From Candidatus Actinomarina sp. (lineage in GTDB: Bacteria > Actinomycetota > Acidimicrobiia > Actinomarinales > Actinomarinaceae): a stretch of DNA of 54,948 nucleotides. Both the position numbers and the translations under genes were made by a program. The DNA lies in contig JBEROH010000002.1 in assembly GCA_041234785.1 (NCBI GenBank), forward strand, positions 1-54,948, given 5' to 3'. The notes beneath the pieces are model-generated. The model was not told where the DNA came from. It did no database searches and was given only the letters and a program-made list of their open reading frames with translations. Shown one piece after another: positions 47,213 to 54,948 of this stretch; the first letter of the stretch is position 1, and every line of letters begins with the position of its first letter.

Positions 47213-48649
47213 ATGTTTGAATTATTAGACATTGCAATAGAATCAGCAGTACATTCAGGTGCGAAATACGCAGATGCAAGAATCTTAATATCAAAATCTA
47301 GAAATATATCTGCAAAAAATGGGGAAATTGAAAATTTTAATGAATCTGAAAGAATTGGAATAGGAATTAGAGCTTTAGTTGGCTCTTCATGGGGATTTTA
47401 TTCAACATTTGACTTATCTACAGATTCTCTAGTAAATTCTGGCAAACAAGCTTTCAATATTGCTAAGGCTTCATCGAAAGTATCCGGTAAAGATATTCCG
47501 TTTGCTGATGTTCCTGTGGTTCAGGATACCTACACAACTCCTCATGACGAAAATCCATTTAGAATGTCATCCTCAGAGCAGATTGATTTATTGATTAACT
47601 CAACTGAAGAAATGAAGAAACTTGGTAGTTCTAGATCTTTTGGTAGATTAGATTTTTGGGATACAGAAAAATGGTTTTCATCCAGTCAAGGTCATAAAAT
47701 ATTTCAGAATATTATAGAATCTGGAGGTGGGATATCTTCCCTTTCAATAGGGGATGGTGAAACACAAATAAGATCTTACCCACAATCCTTTGGGGAATAT
47801 AGAACTGGTGGGTGGGAAGTAATAAAAAGTTTTGATTTTGGTCAACACACAGCAAGACTTGCGGAAGAATCACAAAGACTCCTTGTTTCTCCACAATGTC
47901 CAGAGGGTAAAATGGATTTAATACTTGAAGGAAGCCAACTGGCTTTGCAAATTCATGAATCAGTAGGTCATGCAATTGAATTAGATAGAATACTTGGTTG
48001 GGAAGCTGCTTATGCTGGAACATCTCATTTAGAGTTAAACAAACTCAATAAGCATCGTTATGGTTCAGAATTAATGAACATTGTTGCAGATGCAACCCTT
48101 CCTGGTGCTTTAGCAACATTTAAATATGATGACGAGGGCACACCTGCACAGAGAGTTGACATTGTAAAAGAGGGAGTATGGACTGGAGTACTGTCTGGCC
48201 GAGATAGTGCTGCTATAGCTGGGGTAAAACCTGGCGGTATGGTTAGAGCTGATGGTTTTGGAAGATTGCCAATGGTTAGAATGACTAATGTTGGTTTATT
48301 ACCGGGAAATTCGTCTTTAAAAGAAATTATTGAAGCAACTGACAATGGAATATATATGGAAACTAATAGATCATGGTCAATTGATGATTTAAGATTAAAT
48401 TTTCAATTTGGTTGCGAGGTAGGGTGGATTGTAAAAAATGGAAAGATTTCTGATATGGTCAAAAATCCAACCTATACAGGAATAACTCCAAAGTTTTGGG
48501 GCAGCCTTGATATGTTAGCTGATGAAAATGAATGGGTTTTTTGGGGAACACCAAATTGCGGAAAAGGTCAACCTAGCCAAATAGGACATACAGGTCATCC
48601 AGCTTCACCTGCAAGGTTTAGAGACATAAGAATTGGAGTTAGAGGATGA
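47213..48649 (+). CDS. tldD: TldD-family metalloprotease
   Basis: HESVGHAIELD (HExxxH) motif and the Gly-rich C-terminal block of TldD. Paired with a PmbA-like gene by an ATGA overlap. Confidence 0.85.
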   Translation: MFELLDIAIESAVHSGAKYADARILISKSRNISAKNGEIENFNESERIGIGIRALVGSSWGFYSTFDLSTDSLVNSGKQAFNIAKASSKVSGKDIPFADVPVVQDTYTTPHDENPFRMSSSEQIDLLINSTEEMKKLGSSRSFGRLDFWDTEKWFSSSQGHKIFQNIIESGGGISSLSIGDGETQIRSYPQSFGEYRTGGWEVIKSFDFGQHTARLAEESQRLLVSPQCPEGKMDLILEGSQLALQIHESVGHAIELDRILGWEAAYAGTSHLELNKLNKHRYGSELMNIVADATLPGALATFKYDDEGTPAQRVDIVKEGVWTGVLSGRDSAAIAGVKPGGMVRADGFGRLPMVRMTNVGLLPGNSSLKEIIEATDNGIYMETNRSWSIDDLRLNFQFGCEVGWIVKNGKISDMVKNPTYTGITPKFWGSLDMLADENEWVFWGTPNCGKGQPSQIGHTGHPASPARFRDIRIGVRG

Positions 48650-49971
48650 AAGTGTGGAGTAAATTTCTTCAAGATATTCAAAAAGTAATCCCTAATAGTG
48701 TTGAATGTGAAGTAAAAATGATGCATTCAAAAAGTGCTTTAACGCGCTTTGCAAATTCTCAAATTCATCAAAATGTTGATGAGGAATCAGTTGAAGTATA
48801 TTTAACTGTACATTCAAATGACAAGACTGCTACATTGTCTAAAAATTTAACTGCTATAAAAAATCCATCAGAATTTTACCAAGAGGCAATTAATGTGGTA
48901 GGAAATAGTCCAGTAGATGAAAATTGGGCAGGGCTAGCTGAAAAAAAATTAGAGTTTCAAGGCATTAAAGAGTTAAAACAGTCTACTCCAGAAGAAAGAG
49001 CTATCGCTGTCGAAGAGTTTATATCCCATGGAAAACAAATGAACTCTGCTGGTTATTGCTCAACAGAAACAAGTAACTATTTTATTTGGAATACCAATGA
49101 GTTGTCTTCAGCTGACTCATCTTCAAATGCTTTTATAGATGGAATTTTTAGAACAGAGACCTCTGCAGGCTCATCCCATAGAGGCGGAGTAAGTCTTGAA
49201 GAATTAGACATTTCAAGTGCTGGGTTGGAAGCCTCAAAATTAGCACAAGATAGTCAAAATCCTGTCAACATTGAACCGGGCAATTATGAAGTCATACTTG
49301 GACATGAAGCTGTAAGCACTATCCTAGTTTTTTTATCAGTTTATGGATTTAATGCTAAAAGCAAAATTGACGGTATGAGTCCTATTAAGTTAGGTGAACA
49401 ACAATTTGACGAAAAGATAAACTTACTAGATACACCAGAAGATTCAAAATCTATAGGTTTTAAAATTGACGCATCCGGTGCTTTAAAGTCGAATATGAAA
49501 GTAGTTGAAAATGGTATACCTCAGAGTTACTTCCAGACAAGAAGAACATCAAAAGAATTAGGTATGGACAATACTCATCATGAACTATTTGGTTGGGGAG
49601 AAAATTTTGGAGGAATTGGGACAAACTTAGTTCTTCAGAATGGCAATACAGGTCTTGATTCAATGATTTCAAATGTTAAAAGAGGTATTTATATTAATGA
49701 GTTTTGGTACTGTAGAGTTTTAGACCCTATAACGCAAGTAGTTACTGGTTTAAATAGGAATGGTTCTTTTTTAATAGAAAATGGAAAAATTACAAAGCCT
49801 GTTGGAAGATTGAGATTTACACAAAGCTTTATTTCCTCTTTATCACCCGGTAATGTCTTGGCTATCGGTGATTATATAAGATACGCAGATTCAGAGTTTG
49901 GAGAAGGAATATTGCAAGTACCAAAATTACATTTAAAAGAATTTAACTTTACTGGTGGTGTGTCAGGTTAA
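48646..49971 (+). CDS. pmbA: PmbA/TldE-family protein
   Basis: Same fold family as TldD but without HExxxH. The C-terminal GLNRNGSFLIENGKI block and the canonical TldD partner position support the call. Confidence 0.8.
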   Translation: MKVWSKFLQDIQKVIPNSVECEVKMMHSKSALTRFANSQIHQNVDEESVEVYLTVHSNDKTATLSKNLTAIKNPSEFYQEAINVVGNSPVDENWAGLAEKKLEFQGIKELKQSTPEERAIAVEEFISHGKQMNSAGYCSTETSNYFIWNTNELSSADSSSNAFIDGIFRTETSAGSSHRGGVSLEELDISSAGLEASKLAQDSQNPVNIEPGNYEVILGHEAVSTILVFLSVYGFNAKSKIDGMSPIKLGEQQFDEKINLLDTPEDSKSIGFKIDASGALKSNMKVVENGIPQSYFQTRRTSKELGMDNTHHELFGWGENFGGIGTNLVLQNGNTGLDSMISNVKRGIYINEFWYCRVLDPITQVVTGLNRNGSFLIENGKITKPVGRLRFTQSFISSLSPGNVLAIGDYIRYADSEFGEGILQVPKLHLKEFNFTGGVSG

Positions 49972-50737
49972 ATTGAGTTATTTCGATAGTAATAAACCTT
50001 TAATTATTCCCCATAGAGGTGGTGCAAATATTGTTCCTGAAAATACACTGCATGCTTTACAGACAGTTTCCAACGAAAAGTTTTCTCACTTTGAGACAGA
50101 TTTAAGAATGTCAAAAGATGGTGAAGTATTCCTTCAACATGACGAAACATTTGACAGGACTACAAATACATCAGGATTAGTAGGAGACTTTCTTTGGAAA
50201 GATATATCTAAGATAAATGCAGGTTATAAATTTTATAGAAGTAGAGGACTAAGTGAAATGTCTACAAGATTTGTAACATTGTTAGAAGCACTAACAAAAT
50301 TTCCAGACTTGAAATTTAATTTAGATTTAAAACAGTCAGGGATGGATAAAAAAGTGACCGATATAATATTTTCTTTAAAAGCCGAAAGTAGAGTTTTAGT
50401 ATCTTCATTTAGCCCTAAAAGACTCGATAATTTTATAAAAGTAAGCAAAGGAAGAATTTTAACTTCAGGATCATTTAGAGAAAATCTAGTAGCTAGATTT
50501 CTTCCCTCACAAAAAAGAAATATAAAAGTAAATGCAATTCAAGCACCGTTTCGATGGAAAGGGGTTCAGGTACATTCTTCAAAGCTACTAAATTTTTGTA
50601 AATTAAATAATATTCCTCTTCATATTTGGACAGTTAACTCAATAGATGTATTTAAGAAATGTTTGGAAATTGGATGTGATGGGGTTATAACAGATGAGCC
50701 TATAATTCTAAGAGAGTACTTACGCAAGAAAAATTAA
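49955..50737 (+). CDS. glycerophosphodiester phosphodiesterase
   Basis: IIPHRGG...ENT and ETDLRMSKDG motifs of the GDPD family. The start is uncertain: GTG at 49955, or TTG at 49973 just after the pmbA stop. Confidence 0.8.
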   Translation: MVCQVKLSYFDSNKPLIIPHRGGANIVPENTLHALQTVSNEKFSHFETDLRMSKDGEVFLQHDETFDRTTNTSGLVGDFLWKDISKINAGYKFYRSRGLSEMSTRFVTLLEALTKFPDLKFNLDLKQSGMDKKVTDIIFSLKAESRVLVSSFSPKRLDNFIKVSKGRILTSGSFRENLVARFLPSQKRNIKVNAIQAPFRWKGVQVHSSKLLNFCKLNNIPLHIWTVNSIDVFKKCLEIGCDGVITDEPIILREYLRKKN

Positions 50738-52230
50738 ACTTTAGTATTTTTCTCAATAAAATTATTTGCTTCTTGAAAAATATTCATTTTTCTTTCAGAG
50801 TCTAAGTTTTCTAATAATTTGTATTGCATTGACAACCTAGGATTAGATTTATAAAATTCTTTATTTTTATCTACAAAACTCCAATAAAGTCCATCCATAA
50901 TGTCACACCAGGAACCTCTCTTATAATTACTCATTTTTAAAATATAATTTGAGCTACATGTATAAGGCTTTGTAGACATTAGTCCTCCATCAGCAAAAGT
51001 AGCCATCCCAAAAACATTTGGTACCATAACCCAGTCTGATGAATCTATATACATTTCCATAAACCATTTGTAAATCTCTTTTGGGTGTACGCCGCTTAGA
51101 TTCATAATATTACAAATAACCATAAGTCGAGGGATATGATGAATGTATCCATCTTTAATAGTTAATTTTATACAATCATCTAATGGGAGTATCCCGGTAG
51201 TTCCTGTGTACCAAGAAGTAGTAAGTTTTCTATTATTATTCCAAAAGTTTTGATTATATTGAAATTGTCCCTCTTCATGATAAATTCCACGTATAAATTC
51301 TCTCCATCCGATAATCTGCCTTATAAAGCCTTCAAGAGAATTAATAGGTATTGAAAATTTCATACCATACTCTAGAGCTTTATTTGTTACAAGCAATGGG
51401 GTAAGTAACCCTACATTGAGAGCTGGGCTAATAGCACTGTGAAATAAAAAATTTTGCTCAGATAGCAGACTATCTTCAAATGTACCAAAGAATTCAAATT
51501 TAAGTTTAAAAAAATTATTCAACTGTTCTTCCGCACTTTTTCTGGTGACTGGAAACCAAATATTTTCTAAAGTTCCAGGATGATTAGAAAAATTTTTGTT
51601 AATAATTTCTGATACAGAAATATGGTGTTTTGAAAGCTTAAAAACTATATTTTTTGGAATCTCGGTATTTTTCGGAATTTTTTTTCGGTTTTCTTCATCA
51701 AAGGACCATTTACCCCCAAAAGGTTTGTTGTTTTCTTCAACAAGAATGTTTAGTTTTTTTCTAGCATTTTGATAATAAGAGGACATTCGATATGTTTTTT
51801 TTCCTTTTGCCATAGGTACAAATTCTTCTCGGTCAAAAATAAACATCGGAGATTTATGAACTATAACTTCTATTTTATTTTTTGCTAATTGATTAAGAAG
51901 AGATGTTTCAAAATCTTTATCCTCGATTTCAAACATGTGTATAGTTTTAATATTTTTTTCTTTTAAAAAATTTGTTAAAAATTTTGGATAACTTAAATTA
52001 TCATTTCTATCTTTAAGGTTAAAATAATTTACTTTAATCGAATTATTTTCTAGTTCGTCTTTATATTCACGCATGGATGTTAGAAATAGGTATAGTTTTA
52101 ATTTATGGTGTTTAAAATATGTGCAAAGTCCATAATCTTCACTCATAAAAACTTCATTGCAACGTAATTCTTTTAGTATTGTCGGTGAAAATAGTTGGTT
52201 TCCGAGTATTATAAAAAATTTACTTTTCAT
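50734..52230 (-). CDS. cryptochrome/photolyase-related protein (COG3046 / FeS-BCP-like family)
   Basis: N-terminus MKSKFFIILGNQLF and the C-terminal HHIPRLMVICN...PNVFGMATFADGG...KPY..SSNYILKMSNY blocks are typical of the (6-4)-photolyase-like bacterial family. Confidence 0.75.
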   Translation of the reverse strand: MKSKFFIILGNQLFSPTILKELRCNEVFMSEDYGLCTYFKHHKLKLYLFLTSMREYKDELENNSIKVNYFNLKDRNDNLSYPKFLTNFLKEKNIKTIHMFEIEDKDFETSLLNQLAKNKIEVIVHKSPMFIFDREEFVPMAKGKKTYRMSSYYQNARKKLNILVEENNKPFGGKWSFDEENRKKIPKNTEIPKNIVFKLSKHHISVSEIINKNFSNHPGTLENIWFPVTRKSAEEQLNNFFKLKFEFFGTFEDSLLSEQNFLFHSAISPALNVGLLTPLLVTNKALEYGMKFSIPINSLEGFIRQIIGWREFIRGIYHEEGQFQYNQNFWNNNRKLTTSWYTGTTGILPLDDCIKLTIKDGYIHHIPRLMVICNIMNLSGVHPKEIYKWFMEMYIDSSDWVMVPNVFGMATFADGGLMSTKPYTCSSNYILKMSNYKRGSWCDIMDGLYWSFVDKNKEFYKSNPRLSMQYKLLENLDSERKMNIFQEANNFIEKNTKV

Positions 52231-52294
52231 GTTACAAAAACATAGTCTACCATTGTAGAGTAGAATGATTGGCTAATGAAACTTGGAGGTATAA

Positions 52295-53410
52295 GTGGAT
52301 CTTAAAATTTTAGAAAAAGGGTTTATCCCAGAAAATATTTGTCAAAAACTACCTGATATTTTTTTAGACATTGAACAATTAGCAAGTGACCTACCTAAAG
52401 TTTTAGCCAATGAACAAATCGATGACTTTGTCCATAACTTAGAAGTAGAGAAAGACATATCTTCTCTGACTGAAAGCGAATTAGAGAGAGCTATGTTGCT
52501 CTATTCTTATATTGGCCATGCTTACATGTGGGGGAAAAAAGAAGTTGCAAATGTTATACCAATCCAACTTTCTAAAACCTGGTATGCAATTTCTCAAAAA
52601 CTAGATAGGCCACCTATTCTTTCTTATGCCTCCTATGCTCTTAACAACTGGAAATTACTTGATACTACAAAACCTTTTGATTTAGAAAATATAGCAATTC
52701 TGCAAAACTTCTTAGGTGGAGTTGATGAAGATTGGTTTATTATGATCCACGTGGCAATAGAGCACGAAGCAAAAAATGTTTTGTCTTATTTAAAAAACTA
52801 TTTTTTAGACGAAAGCTTTGATGATAACAATTTAGAACTTGCGTTAAATAGCATTAAAAAAATTAATTCAATTATGAATAGAATGCCAGAAAAATGTGAT
52901 CCGTTTATTTACTACAACAGAGTTAGGCCATATATATTTGGGTGGAAAAATAATCCAGCTACTCCAAACGGTGTTGTTTATGATGGAGTAAAAGAATTTA
53001 ATAATGAACCACAACAATTTAGAGGTGAAACAGGAGCACAAAGTTCAATAGTTCCTGTACTAGATGCCTTGCTTGGAGTTGTTCATTCTAATGACCCATT
53101 ACGAGAATACTTAGATGAAATGAGACTCTATATGCCTAAGGAACATAGGGAAATATTAAATTATTTAGATGATTGGTCAGAATCAACTAGAAAAAACTTA
53201 ACATTAGAGGGTAAAGCTAAAAATTTGGTTGCTGAAATTATAAAAGAAGTTCATATCTTTAGAGATAAGCACCTTGAGTATGCCAGAGTGTATATTTTTG
53301 AACAGTCTTTAACAAATAATTCAAACTCTAATATTGTCGGCACTGGTGGTACGCCTTTTATGAAATATCTTGATAAGCATTTACAAGAGACTGTATCTAC
53401 AGATGGTTAA
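52295..53410 (+). CDS. indoleamine 2,3-dioxygenase-like heme protein
   Basis: IDO-family blocks are present: N-terminal GFIPE...LPD, ERAMLLYSYIGHAYMWG, PPILSYASYALNNW, GGVDEDWF, FRGETGAQSSIVPVLDALLGV (compare GGSAGQSS in eukaryotic IDO), and FRDKHLEYARVYI (proximal-His region). GTG start with GGAGG 5 nt upstream. Confidence 0.75.
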   Translation: MDLKILEKGFIPENICQKLPDIFLDIEQLASDLPKVLANEQIDDFVHNLEVEKDISSLTESELERAMLLYSYIGHAYMWGKKEVANVIPIQLSKTWYAISQKLDRPPILSYASYALNNWKLLDTTKPFDLENIAILQNFLGGVDEDWFIMIHVAIEHEAKNVLSYLKNYFLDESFDDNNLELALNSIKKINSIMNRMPEKCDPFIYYNRVRPYIFGWKNNPATPNGVVYDGVKEFNNEPQQFRGETGAQSSIVPVLDALLGVVHSNDPLREYLDEMRLYMPKEHREILNYLDDWSESTRKNLTLEGKAKNLVAEIIKEVHIFRDKHLEYARVYIFEQSLTNNSNSNIVGTGGTPFMKYLDKHLQETVSTDG

Positions 53411-54506
53411 AAAACTAGGCATACCAAAAGAAGTTAAGAAAGATGAAGGTCGGGTAAGTTTAATCCCTAACCATGTTTCTCAATTTTTAGGTCTCGCAGA
53501 TATTTATGTTGAAAGTAATGCTGGACTAGGTTCGGGATTTTCTGATGGAGATTATATAGAAGCTGGTGCCAAGATTGTTCCTAGTGCTGAAGACTTATAC
53601 GATGTTTCGGACATCATTTGTAAGGTAAAAGAACCCCAGGAGCAAGAACATGCTTTACTAAAACCAAACCATGTTTTGTTTGGGTATCTTCATCTTGCAT
53701 CAAACTTATCGTTAGTAAAAAAATTATTGGATAAAAAACTAACAGGTATCGCAATTGAGATGATTATGGAGGGTAAAGAATACCCTTTATTAATTCCAAT
53801 GTCTAAGATTGCAGGGAATTTGGCAATTCAAAAAGGAATGCAGTTTTTAGAGTATTCTTCTGGTGGAAAAGGTGTTTTGCTTTCATCAATATCAGGTAAA
53901 AAAAATTCTAAAGTTACAGTTATTGGATGTGGAGAAGTTGGAAAAAGTTCTATTCATAAATCAATTCAACTAGGTGCAGAAGTTTCAGCAATAGATATTA
54001 ATGAGAAAATTCTTCAAGATTTACAAGAAAAGTATGGGGACAATATCTCTACCTTTTTAAGTGGCACACCTGAAGCAGAGAATACAATTAGAACTTCTGA
54101 TTTGGTTATTGGAGCTGTCCTAATTCCAGGTAGGAAACCTCCAATAGTTGTAACAGAAGAAGACATAAATCATATGGAAAAAGGTTCAGTAATTGTCGAT
54201 GTTGCTATTGATCAAGGTGGTTGCGTAGAGAATGTTGCTGTAAATTCACATAGTGATCCTTTTGTAGTCAAAAATGGAGTTTTAGTTTCGGCAATTGCAA
54301 ATTTACCAGGAGCTGTTCCAAGAACCTCTTCAATTGCGTTATCTTCAGTTTTGCAAAAATATATTGACTTTCTTCTTATTGAAGACTGGTTTGAAAACTT
54401 TAAAAATGATCCAAATTTAAAACCATCCTTACAGATTCATAACGGCCTTTTATTATCAGAAGAAGTTGCAGAAAGTTTGAGTTTGACTTTATCTAAATTA
54501 ATTTAG
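53403..54506 (+). CDS. ald: alanine dehydrogenase family protein
   Basis: MVKKLGIPKEVKKDEGRVSLIP, VESNAGLGSGFSDGDYIEAGAKIV, KVKEP, FGYLHLA, and the Rossmann motif VIGCGEVG. I prefer the ATG at 53403 (ATGGTTAA overlap with the IDO stop) to the track start at 53370. Confidence 0.85.
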   Translation: MVKKLGIPKEVKKDEGRVSLIPNHVSQFLGLADIYVESNAGLGSGFSDGDYIEAGAKIVPSAEDLYDVSDIICKVKEPQEQEHALLKPNHVLFGYLHLASNLSLVKKLLDKKLTGIAIEMIMEGKEYPLLIPMSKIAGNLAIQKGMQFLEYSSGGKGVLLSSISGKKNSKVTVIGCGEVGKSSIHKSIQLGAEVSAIDINEKILQDLQEKYGDNISTFLSGTPEAENTIRTSDLVIGAVLIPGRKPPIVVTEEDINHMEKGSVIVDVAIDQGGCVENVAVNSHSDPFVVKNGVLVSAIANLPGAVPRTSSIALSSVLQKYIDFLLIEDWFENFKNDPNLKPSLQIHNGLLLSEEVAESLSLTLSKLI

Positions 54507-54948
54507 GCTTCCATTTTTTTCTTGAGTTACTAAATTCTTCGATAGCTTTTTGATATTTAAGTGATATATCAATCTTGTCTAAGCCGTTCAATAGTCTATT
54601 TTGAGAAAAATCATCAAGTTCAAATTTAAATTTTATATCTTCACATTCCACATATTTGTTCTTAACTGATATAAAAATTTTCAGATTTGGATTCGAATCA
54701 ATTTTATTAAATAAATTTTCAAGATTTTCTTGTGTGGTTTCAATCGGCAATAAACCGATGTTAATGGAGTTTAGTTTAAATATATCTGCAAATTTTGAAG
54801 AAATGATAGCCTCAAAGCCCCAGTCTTGCAGGCCCCATGGGGCATGCTCCCTAGAAGATCCGGTTCCAAAATTATCACCTGCAATTAGGACTTTAGCGTT
54901 TTGATATTTTTCATTATTTAATGGAAAATCTGGGTCTTTTTTCCAATC
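54493..54948 (-). CDS. leuD: 3-isopropylmalate dehydratase small subunit (5' end beyond the window)
   Basis: The frame is open to the window edge. It reads ...VLIAGDNFGTGSSREHAPWGLQDWGFEAIISSKFADIFKLNSINIGLLPI..., the LeuD signature region. Confidence 0.85.
   Translation of the reverse strand, partial: DWKKDPDFPLNNEKYQNAKVLIAGDNFGTGSSREHAPWGLQDWGFEAIISSKFADIFKLNSINIGLLPIETTQENLENLFNKIDSNPNLKIFISVKNKYVECEDIKFKFELDDFSQNRLLNGLDKIDISLKYQKAIEEFSNSRKKWKPKLI

Follow-up and report, generated by a model that had tools for sequence, protein, structure and literature searches.

Two families of haem enzyme are relevant to tryptophan 2,3-dioxygenation: indoleamine 2,3-dioxygenases (IDOs), which are monomeric in type, and tryptophan 2,3-dioxygenases (TDOs), which are tetrameric. 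In bacteria, TDO (KynA) belongs to the anthranilate pathway encoded by kynA, kynB and kynU. Distant members of the IDO structural superfamily include PrnB, the haem enzyme that rearranges 7-chloro-tryptophan in pyrrolnitrin synthesis, and an IDO-like protein of Shewanella. Bacterial IDOs have already been described (Yuasa, Ushigoe & Ball 2011, Gene 485:22, as cited in PMC4191572), and that review states that IDO and TDO do not occur together in bacteria. Here, we describe an IDO-family gene that directly precedes, and overlaps, an alanine dehydrogenase gene (ald) in Candidatus Actinomarina sp., at the far end of a 54,948-nt stretch of DNA (GenBank assembly GCA_041234785.1, contig JBEROH010000002.1, positions 1 to 54,948 of the forward strand) that we refer to as the window. 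We discuss the family, fold, active-site residues, operon anatomy, distribution, losses and missing downstream pathway of this gene, and propose from these a candidate substrate, product, co-transcription and physiological role. On balance, the account set out below, including the view that history, rather than a shared pathway, explains the pairing, seems to us the probable one.

The IDO gene occupies positions 52295 to 53410 of the forward strand, begins with GTG, and encodes 371 amino acids. Its product matches the Pfam IDO family PF01231 with E 1.1e-76, scoring 258.8 bits where the cut-off is 26, and the match spans positions 10-410 of the 412-position profile; in an NCBIfam search, no model matched. 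All of the motifs quoted in an earlier note on this DNA (HAYMWG, PPILSYASYALNNW, GGVDEDWF, GETGAQSS and FRDKHL..YI) are found in the open reading frame (ORF). A sequence search of the PDB at E ≤ 1e-3 returned 25 sequences, all of them human IDO1 or IDO2 (best E 4.8e-41, 25-28% identity), with PrnB and the Shewanella IDO-like protein absent from the set. There is also no halogenase context of the pyrrolnitrin type at the Actinomarina locus. An AlphaFold2 model built with 40 homologues as input (mean pLDDT 93.3) has the two-domain IDO fold, with small and large helical domains. Foldseek matched this model to human IDO1 chains over its full length (TM 0.84-0.89, E ~1e-21), and to IDO2 as well. 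The gene product is almost certainly an IDO-family haem protein.

Comparison with the human enzymes (PDB 2D0T, 7A62, 6CXU and 9UZ4) reveals the same all-helical two-domain fold and the same key residues. His326 (in FRDKHLEYA, codon 53270-53272) aligns with the proximal haem ligand of IDO1, His346 (in LRSYHLQIV), and is invariant in both sets of bacterial homologues compared (40 and 9). The earlier note had read the ORF as a real IDO-family gene with its proximal His kept, and this reading holds. Arg211 aligns with Arg231 of IDO1, Thr350 in the loop G349-T350-G351-G352 with Thr379, and Phe148 with Phe163. GETGAQSS aligns with the IDO1 261-267 segment (Ser263-Ala264), meaning that the G-x-x-G-x-QSS segment is likewise kept. 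All four of these positions are invariant or ≥90% conserved among the bacterial homologues. We take Arg231, the Thr379 GTGG loop and the Ser263-Ala264 segment to be the parts of IDO1 that hold the amino-acid moiety of tryptophan. Judged by these residues, the Actinomarina protein carries an intact site for an indole amino acid and would be an active enzyme.

There are also clear differences from IDO1 and IDO2. The Actinomarina protein has a shorter N-terminus and no long JK-loop insert, and it is bacterial, encoded in an operon, and lacks a downstream pathway (see below). In the distal pocket, His152 (codon 52748-52750) takes the position of Ser167, a position that is His in ≥90% of the bacterial clade; Tyr206/Tyr207 stand in for Phe226/Phe227, and Ile149 for Phe164. 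It is because Ser167 is replaced by His that the top PDB sequence match is 6CXU, an engineered human IDO1 S167H. In TDO, an enzyme highly specific for L-Trp, a distal His normally forms a hydrogen bond with the indole nitrogen (PMC11904535). Bacterial TDO is expected to catalyze the same reaction and has the distal His that contacts the substrate; however, its sequence family is unrelated (PF03301 was not found in the window's own genome), and its partners, kynB and kynU, were not found in the five genomes searched for them. The Actinomarina gene belongs to the same family as the bacterial IDOs already described and occurs instead of TDO, fitting the reported exclusion. Given the conserved IDO1 residues, tryptophan dioxygenation is the likely reaction of the protein.

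The altered distal pocket (His152, Tyr206/Tyr207 and Ile149) also lends itself to a different interpretation, namely that the protein acts on another substrate, such as D-Trp, other indoleamines or indole compounds from phytoplankton, or that it serves as a haem-based scavenger or sensor of O2, reactive oxygen species or NO. The adjacency to ald would then be metabolically meaningless. Members of the IDO family are known that are promiscuous or non-enzymatic, e.g., IDO-like myoglobin (PMC4191572). Nonetheless, the residues that hold tryptophan in IDO1 (Arg231, the Thr379 GTGG loop and GxxGxQSS) are invariant or nearly so in the clade, and a distal His is normal in the L-Trp-specific TDO (PMC11904535). 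We consider another substrate or chemistry rather unlikely.

The downstream gene, ald (53403-54506, forward strand), encodes 367 amino acids that include both AlaDh_PNT domains (PF05222, E 1.6e-38; PF01262, E 1.6e-58). The protein matches solved alanine dehydrogenases with E 2.5e-88, compared with E 7e-32 for PntA, the transhydrogenase alpha subunit. In an alignment with the 8HYE Ald, the KVKEP, YLHLA and VDVAIDQGG motifs are identical. The substrate and catalytic residues of Ald are an Arg near the N-terminus, the Lys of KVKEP, the His of YLHLA and the Asp of VDVAIDQGG, and all of them are kept in this alignment. Against the NCBIfam model TIGR00518, the protein scores 351.1 bits, below the equivalog cut-off of 391.85. 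Its orthologues in the genus score 337-354 bits; since all Actinomarina orthologues score low, the shortfall reflects lineage-wide divergence in a fast-evolving, low-GC group rather than a special paralogue. We refer to the product as an NAD-dependent L-alanine dehydrogenase (AlaDH) on the basis of the PDB match and the motifs, with the caveat of the sub-cut-off TIGR00518 score.

A specialized paralogue, such as an opine or lysine dehydrogenase, was considered and rejected: ald is the sole full-length AlaDH gene in each of five genomes checked, its product is closest to solved Ald structures, the Ald motifs are kept, and the gene is retained in genomes without IDO. More broadly, 185 of 201 Acidimicrobiia genomes have ald, at 37-45% identity; this tally includes one unpublished genome, G226, on which the conclusion does not depend. 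A second protein of ~340 amino acids (G000:C4:1439-1837; G019:C1:984443-984841) matches only the NAD-binding core of AlaDH (profile positions 164-279) and is conserved in all five genomes checked.

The IDO and ald genes overlap by 8 nt on the forward strand, at positions 53403 to 53410. The overlapping sequence, ATGGTTAA, is read directly from the DNA and contains the ATG of ald (53403-53405) and the TAA of IDO (53408-53410). The earlier claim that the IDO stop codon overlaps the start of a canonical ald is borne out, the second gene being an AlaDH gene by its domains and structure matches. A Shine-Dalgarno sequence, GGAGG, lies at 52285-52289, 5 nt before the GTG start of IDO. It lies within a 64-bp intergenic region (52231-52294, here on the forward strand), the presumed IDO-ald promoter, which is common to this pair and a divergent photolyase-related gene. 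On the forward strand of this region, no consensus sigma-70 site was found; in scans for consensus promoters and terminators, promoter-like sites were less frequent than in shuffled sequence, and the scans yielded nothing informative. A riboswitch, T-box or attenuator 5' of IDO was rejected, with no Rfam match at E ≤ 0.1 and a spacer of just 64 bp.

The earlier note took the overlap to imply translational coupling. While the overlap is real, the case for a special functional meaning is weakened by the frequency of such overlaps: of the 37 same-strand neighbor pairs in the window, 18 overlap, and in six the overlap measures exactly 8 nt (an approximate census, since longest-ORF starts were used). 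About 95% of the window is coding. Start/stop overlaps are the default state in the Actinomarina genome.

IDO lies directly upstream of ald, with an overlap of exactly 8 nt, in 50 of 50 loci of the order Actinomarinales that have both genes (some genomes are counted twice, having been found through two tools). A locus from the second genus keeps both the pair and the overlap at protein identities of 59% (IDO) and 48% (Ald). The pair is thus not unique to the window's genome, a condition on which the earlier note had made its reading depend. Outside the order, however, the pair is not conserved: AlaDH was found within ±6 kb of IDO in none of 61 loci from other bacteria, such that recurrence of the pair in independent lineages was not observed. 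When the ORFs of these 61 loci were clustered, the largest cluster of neighbors, an aldehyde dehydrogenase, spanned only six loci, and a conserved IDO partner gene in other bacteria was rejected; none of the ten annotated neighbor clusters was a kynurenine-pathway gene. In one Actinomarinales genome (G059; locus L121, G059:C1:869351-873319), one frameshift splits IDO near residue 281 and another splits ald near residues 40-46. These frameshifts are either indel errors in a 3-contig, probably long-read assembly, or signs of a decaying operon.

Conservation of the exact overlap and adjacency across the whole order, including the second genus at its lower identities, speaks for a true metabolic module that harvests nitrogen from tryptophan. 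In such a module, IDO would open tryptophan, an aminotransferase would pass the alpha-amino group of (formyl)kynurenine to pyruvate, giving alanine and kynurenate, and Ald would then free NH4+ and NADH and restore pyruvate; in the classical version, kynureninase would release the alanine. Conserved adjacency, however, extends beyond the pair. Within Actinomarina, synteny spans the genes for sigma-70, TldD, TldD, glycerophosphodiester phosphodiesterase (GDPD), the photolyase-related protein, IDO, ald and leuD. Changes to this order occur only upstream of IDO, and the ald-leuD adjacency is conserved in all loci checked. Because the whole region is syntenic, adjacency argues scarcely more for a link between IDO and ald than for one between ald and leuD. 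Together with the generic nature of overlaps and the absence of the pair from every other IDO-bearing bacterium in the set of 61 loci, this counts against a nitrogen-harvest module.

The distributions of the two genes differ sharply. Nearly all genomes of the class have ald. IDO was detected in 55 of 65 Actinomarinales genomes, second genus included, and in only one of 236 other Acidimicrobiia genomes, where it is of a different type. The earlier statement that IDO is uncommon in bacteria is fair, although the family is not rare: at least 597 species genomes across many phyla encode IDOs with the distal-His motif, among them Bdellovibrionota, Armatimonadota, Acidobacteriota, Coxiellaceae/Legionella, Chlamydiota, Myxococcota, Bacteroidota and Cyanobacteriota. 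Many of these carriers are intracellular or predatory (Coxiellaceae, Legionella, Chlamydiota and Bdellovibrionota). In a tree of 82 IDO sequences, those from Actinomarinales form one clade with 100% support and a long stem; the tree contains no well-supported sister group and no clear donor for this clade. A close homologue is named "indoleamine 2,3-dioxygenase [Acidimicrobiia bacterium]" in public annotation, and a literature search returned no paper linking Actinomarinales with indoleamine or kynurenine metabolism. One genome of the order, G063, has a partial second IDO fragment (G063:C3:42151-42609, profile positions 10-167, in a 187-aa open frame) besides a full copy. The G063 assembly is fragmented and 2% contaminated, and the fragment could be a strain-mix artefact or the remnant of a duplicate.

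Near-confinement of IDO to the order, its single clade and the near-universal presence of ald in the class together point to one horizontal acquisition of IDO in front of a resident ald. In the simplest history, the ancestor of Ca. Actinomarinales would have gained IDO once by horizontal transfer, and the gene would have been placed directly ahead of the resident, housekeeping ald.

Ten genomes of the order have no IDO match. Five of these (63-78% complete) are also without ald, and in these the region is probably unassembled. The other five (G024, G047, G051, G026 and G039) keep ald at the same position, and their junctions fall into two types. In type A (G024 and G047), the deletion runs from IDO codon 20-21 to the end of IDO, with its junction at an 8-nt microhomology, TCGAATGA. 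What remains is 22 codons in the original reading frame, and their end still forms the ATGATTAA overlap. In type B (G051, G026 and G039), the junction lies a few codons later, and the remnant is frameshifted. The flanks of the G024 deletion are 98.7% identical to those of G027, which has IDO, and the Ald proteins of the two genomes are 99% identical. In a tree of Ald proteins, G024 and G051 each branch from within genomes that have IDO. Two deletion types and this nesting indicate that IDO was lost at least twice, and recently.

In all of the IDO-deleted relatives, ald is still preceded by the upstream region, the IDO translation start and at least 21 IDO codons. Since this region is kept at each loss, we infer that ald is expressed from the IDO promoter. 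The deletion pattern also suggests that ald is indispensable and IDO an accessory. Where it is kept, IDO is under purifying selection, with dN/dS of 0.04-0.14 (for pairs with dS above about 0.1), a range equal to that of Ald. Purifying selection on a gene that has nonetheless been deleted at least twice suggests a function that is useful but dispensable. That ald is the sole housekeeping AlaDH gene and is kept when IDO is deleted weakens any special link between the two genes. Similarly, retention of ald with the same upstream region, from which it would be expressed, counts against a nitrogen-harvest module.

We turn next to the tryptophan route itself. The earlier note had seen no downstream kynurenine-pathway gene near the pair, and indeed there is none in the IDO-ald neighborhood of the window. 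The absence proves to be genome-wide rather than merely local. In five genomes (G000, G019, G002, G043 and G048, three of them 93-94% complete), kynureninase (TIGR01814) had no match at E ≤ 1e-3, and KynB, the cyclase-type formamidase (PF04199), had no match either. The class-V pyridoxal-phosphate (PLP) proteins of these genomes (PF00266) number three in all: SufS, a NifS/IscS-like desulfurase and SerC. Since every class-V PLP enzyme is assigned, a hidden kynureninase is unlikely. The earlier suggestion that Ald might handle alanine released by a kynureninase encoded elsewhere is not supported by these results.

Animal kynurenine formamidase belongs to a fold family of the hormone-sensitive-lipase type (PF07859). 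Unspecific esterases of this type were detected in 63 of the 65 Actinomarinales genomes. Since the IDO-less genomes have PF07859 esterases too, these proteins show no tie to IDO, and the idea of a dedicated formamidase that disappeared along with IDO was rejected.

In favor of the nitrogen-harvest module, alanine is what kynureninase yields in the established pathway, and both IDO and Ald would consume imported amino acids, the carbon sources that the group prefers (PMC7771536). With kynureninase not found, every class-V PLP enzyme accounted for and no specific kynurenine aminotransferase identified, we regard a true nitrogen-harvest module as unlikely. A role for IDO in de novo synthesis of NAD from tryptophan, as in eukaryotes and some bacteria, would be the classical use of tryptophan 2,3-dioxygenation. 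It would suit a genome in which no TDO was found and bacteria in which, according to PMC4191572, IDO and TDO are mutually exclusive. However, the obligatory kynureninase was not found in the five genomes and IDO is dispensable in five species; the NAD-synthesis role is effectively refuted by the missing enzyme, and we assign it next to no probability. In other bacteria with a distal-His IDO, kynureninase scored above the TIGR01814 cut-off in only 7 of 40 genomes (G301-G340, behind L056-L115), which are metagenome-assembled genomes (MAGs), such that some misses are expected. Bacteria that carry IDO thus seem, as a rule, to have it as an orphan, with no kynurenine pathway. This apparent detachment of the clade from the kynurenine pathway is a further point for a substrate or chemistry other than L-Trp dioxygenation.

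Tryptophan supply is also part of the context. Ca. Actinomarina genomes are about 1 Mb in size; that of the window is a 0.91-Mb assembly of 55 contigs, 72% complete, in which the window is contig 14. According to an order-wide genome survey, all members are auxotrophic for Arg, His and Trp and prefer amino acids from outside the cell; the survey makes no mention of IDO, kynurenine or alanine dehydrogenase (PMC7771536). Consistent with this, trpA was not found in five genomes, and no trpB match exceeded the cut-off in the same number, one genome having a single sub-threshold TrpB-like match. Together with the published auxotrophy, these results mean that tryptophan must be imported. The TrpB-like ORF (G048:C3:63483-64541) scores 143 bits against a trpB cut-off of 392, and may be of the TrpB2 type or another PLP enzyme. 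Haem supply varies as well: ferrochelatase (PF00762) was detected in only 33 of the 65 Actinomarinales genomes; among the 12 that are ≥90% complete, 7 have it. It is present at G002:C1:234611-235603 and was not found in G000, G019 (a single contig) or G048. Many Actinomarina species may be haem auxotrophs yet keep IDO, a haem enzyme.

Our preferred account is as follows. A haem-b IDO would insert O2 into L-Trp, or a close indole amino acid, taken from seawater, giving N-formylkynurenine. The product would be a dead end, with N-formylkynurenine or kynurenine released or used in some unrecognized way, or it would be handled by unspecific enzymes. IDO and ald would form one transcription unit, read from the IDO promoter and ribosome-binding site. 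Because IDO came to lie between ald and the region upstream of ald, and the genome has almost no spacers, the two genes are presumably co-transcribed and probably translationally coupled. The pairing would reflect a landing site in a 95%-coding genome and the co-expression of two enzymes that consume imported amino acids, rather than a two-step pathway.

Several observations weigh against this account. First, the overlap has stayed at exactly 8 nt despite ~40% divergence of IDO and ~50% divergence of Ald, which leaves room for selection on co-expression. Second, the candidate substrate and product of IDO in this clade are read solely from conserved IDO1 residues, and the distal His152 could alter reactivity. 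Third, the absence of the pathway is drawn from MAGs and single-amplified genomes (SAGs) that are 72-94% complete, and profile searches could miss non-homologous replacements. Lastly, it is odd for a tryptophan auxotroph to destroy tryptophan without visible gain, which suggests that the account is missing a step.

The genes flanking the pair lie outside the operon. The divergent neighbor (50734-52230, reverse strand) encodes a photolyase-related protein of the DPRP/FeS-BCP type (PF04244, E 1.4e-57; PF03441). The convergent neighbor, leuD (54493-54948, reverse strand; NF002458, E 1.2e-54), is cut at the window end and overlaps the 3' end of ald by 14 nt. The wider neighborhood comprises a sigma-70 gene, two TldD/PmbA genes and a GDPD gene in addition to the photolyase-related gene and leuD. 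The TldD/PmbA-family metallopeptidase genes are arranged in tandem and overlap each other by 4 nt, and the GDPD gene that follows overlaps by 17 nt (all within 47213-50737, forward strand). The second TldD/PmbA copy has no match to the N-terminal domain. At one locus (L052), the photolyase-related gene is missing beside IDO, and the next gene upstream, on the IDO strand, is GDPD. At the second-genus locus (L053), ~2.2 kb of other DNA takes the place of the photolyase-related gene. The IDO-ald pair stays at both loci. The photolyase-like gene had prompted the idea that kynurenines serve as an ultraviolet sunscreen. This idea was set aside on general grounds, since intracellular sunscreens are ineffective in cells as small as those of Actinomarina. 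The photolyase-like gene is also absent beside IDO in L052 and L053.

Few free-living marine bacteria are as small or as abundant as Ca. Actinomarina, and a gene retained in a 1-Mb genome usually has a purpose. The puzzle is that a tryptophan auxotroph keeps a tryptophan-destroying haem enzyme under selection, with no visible use for its product and with no ferrochelatase found in about half of the species. This bears on the amino-acid economy of streamlined plankton and on the sources of kynurenines in seawater, and the IDO-deletion lineages provide natural comparison populations. For annotation, caution is warranted, since a reading of IDO plus Ald as a route from tryptophan to alanine to pyruvate is not supported. 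A further proposal, which we consider unlikely, is that IDO is the entry to, and possibly the whole of, a truncated, kynureninase-free tryptophan route whose product is excreted or deaminated via alanine and the co-translated Ald. If this were true, one of the most abundant actinobacteria of the surface ocean would steadily supply marine dissolved organic matter with compounds of the kynurenine type. The clade-wide distal His is a natural counterpart of the engineered human S167H IDO1, and the bacterial clade that carries it, with 33 of 40 genomes lacking a detected kynureninase, may, if this holds true, have a still unrecognized physiological role.

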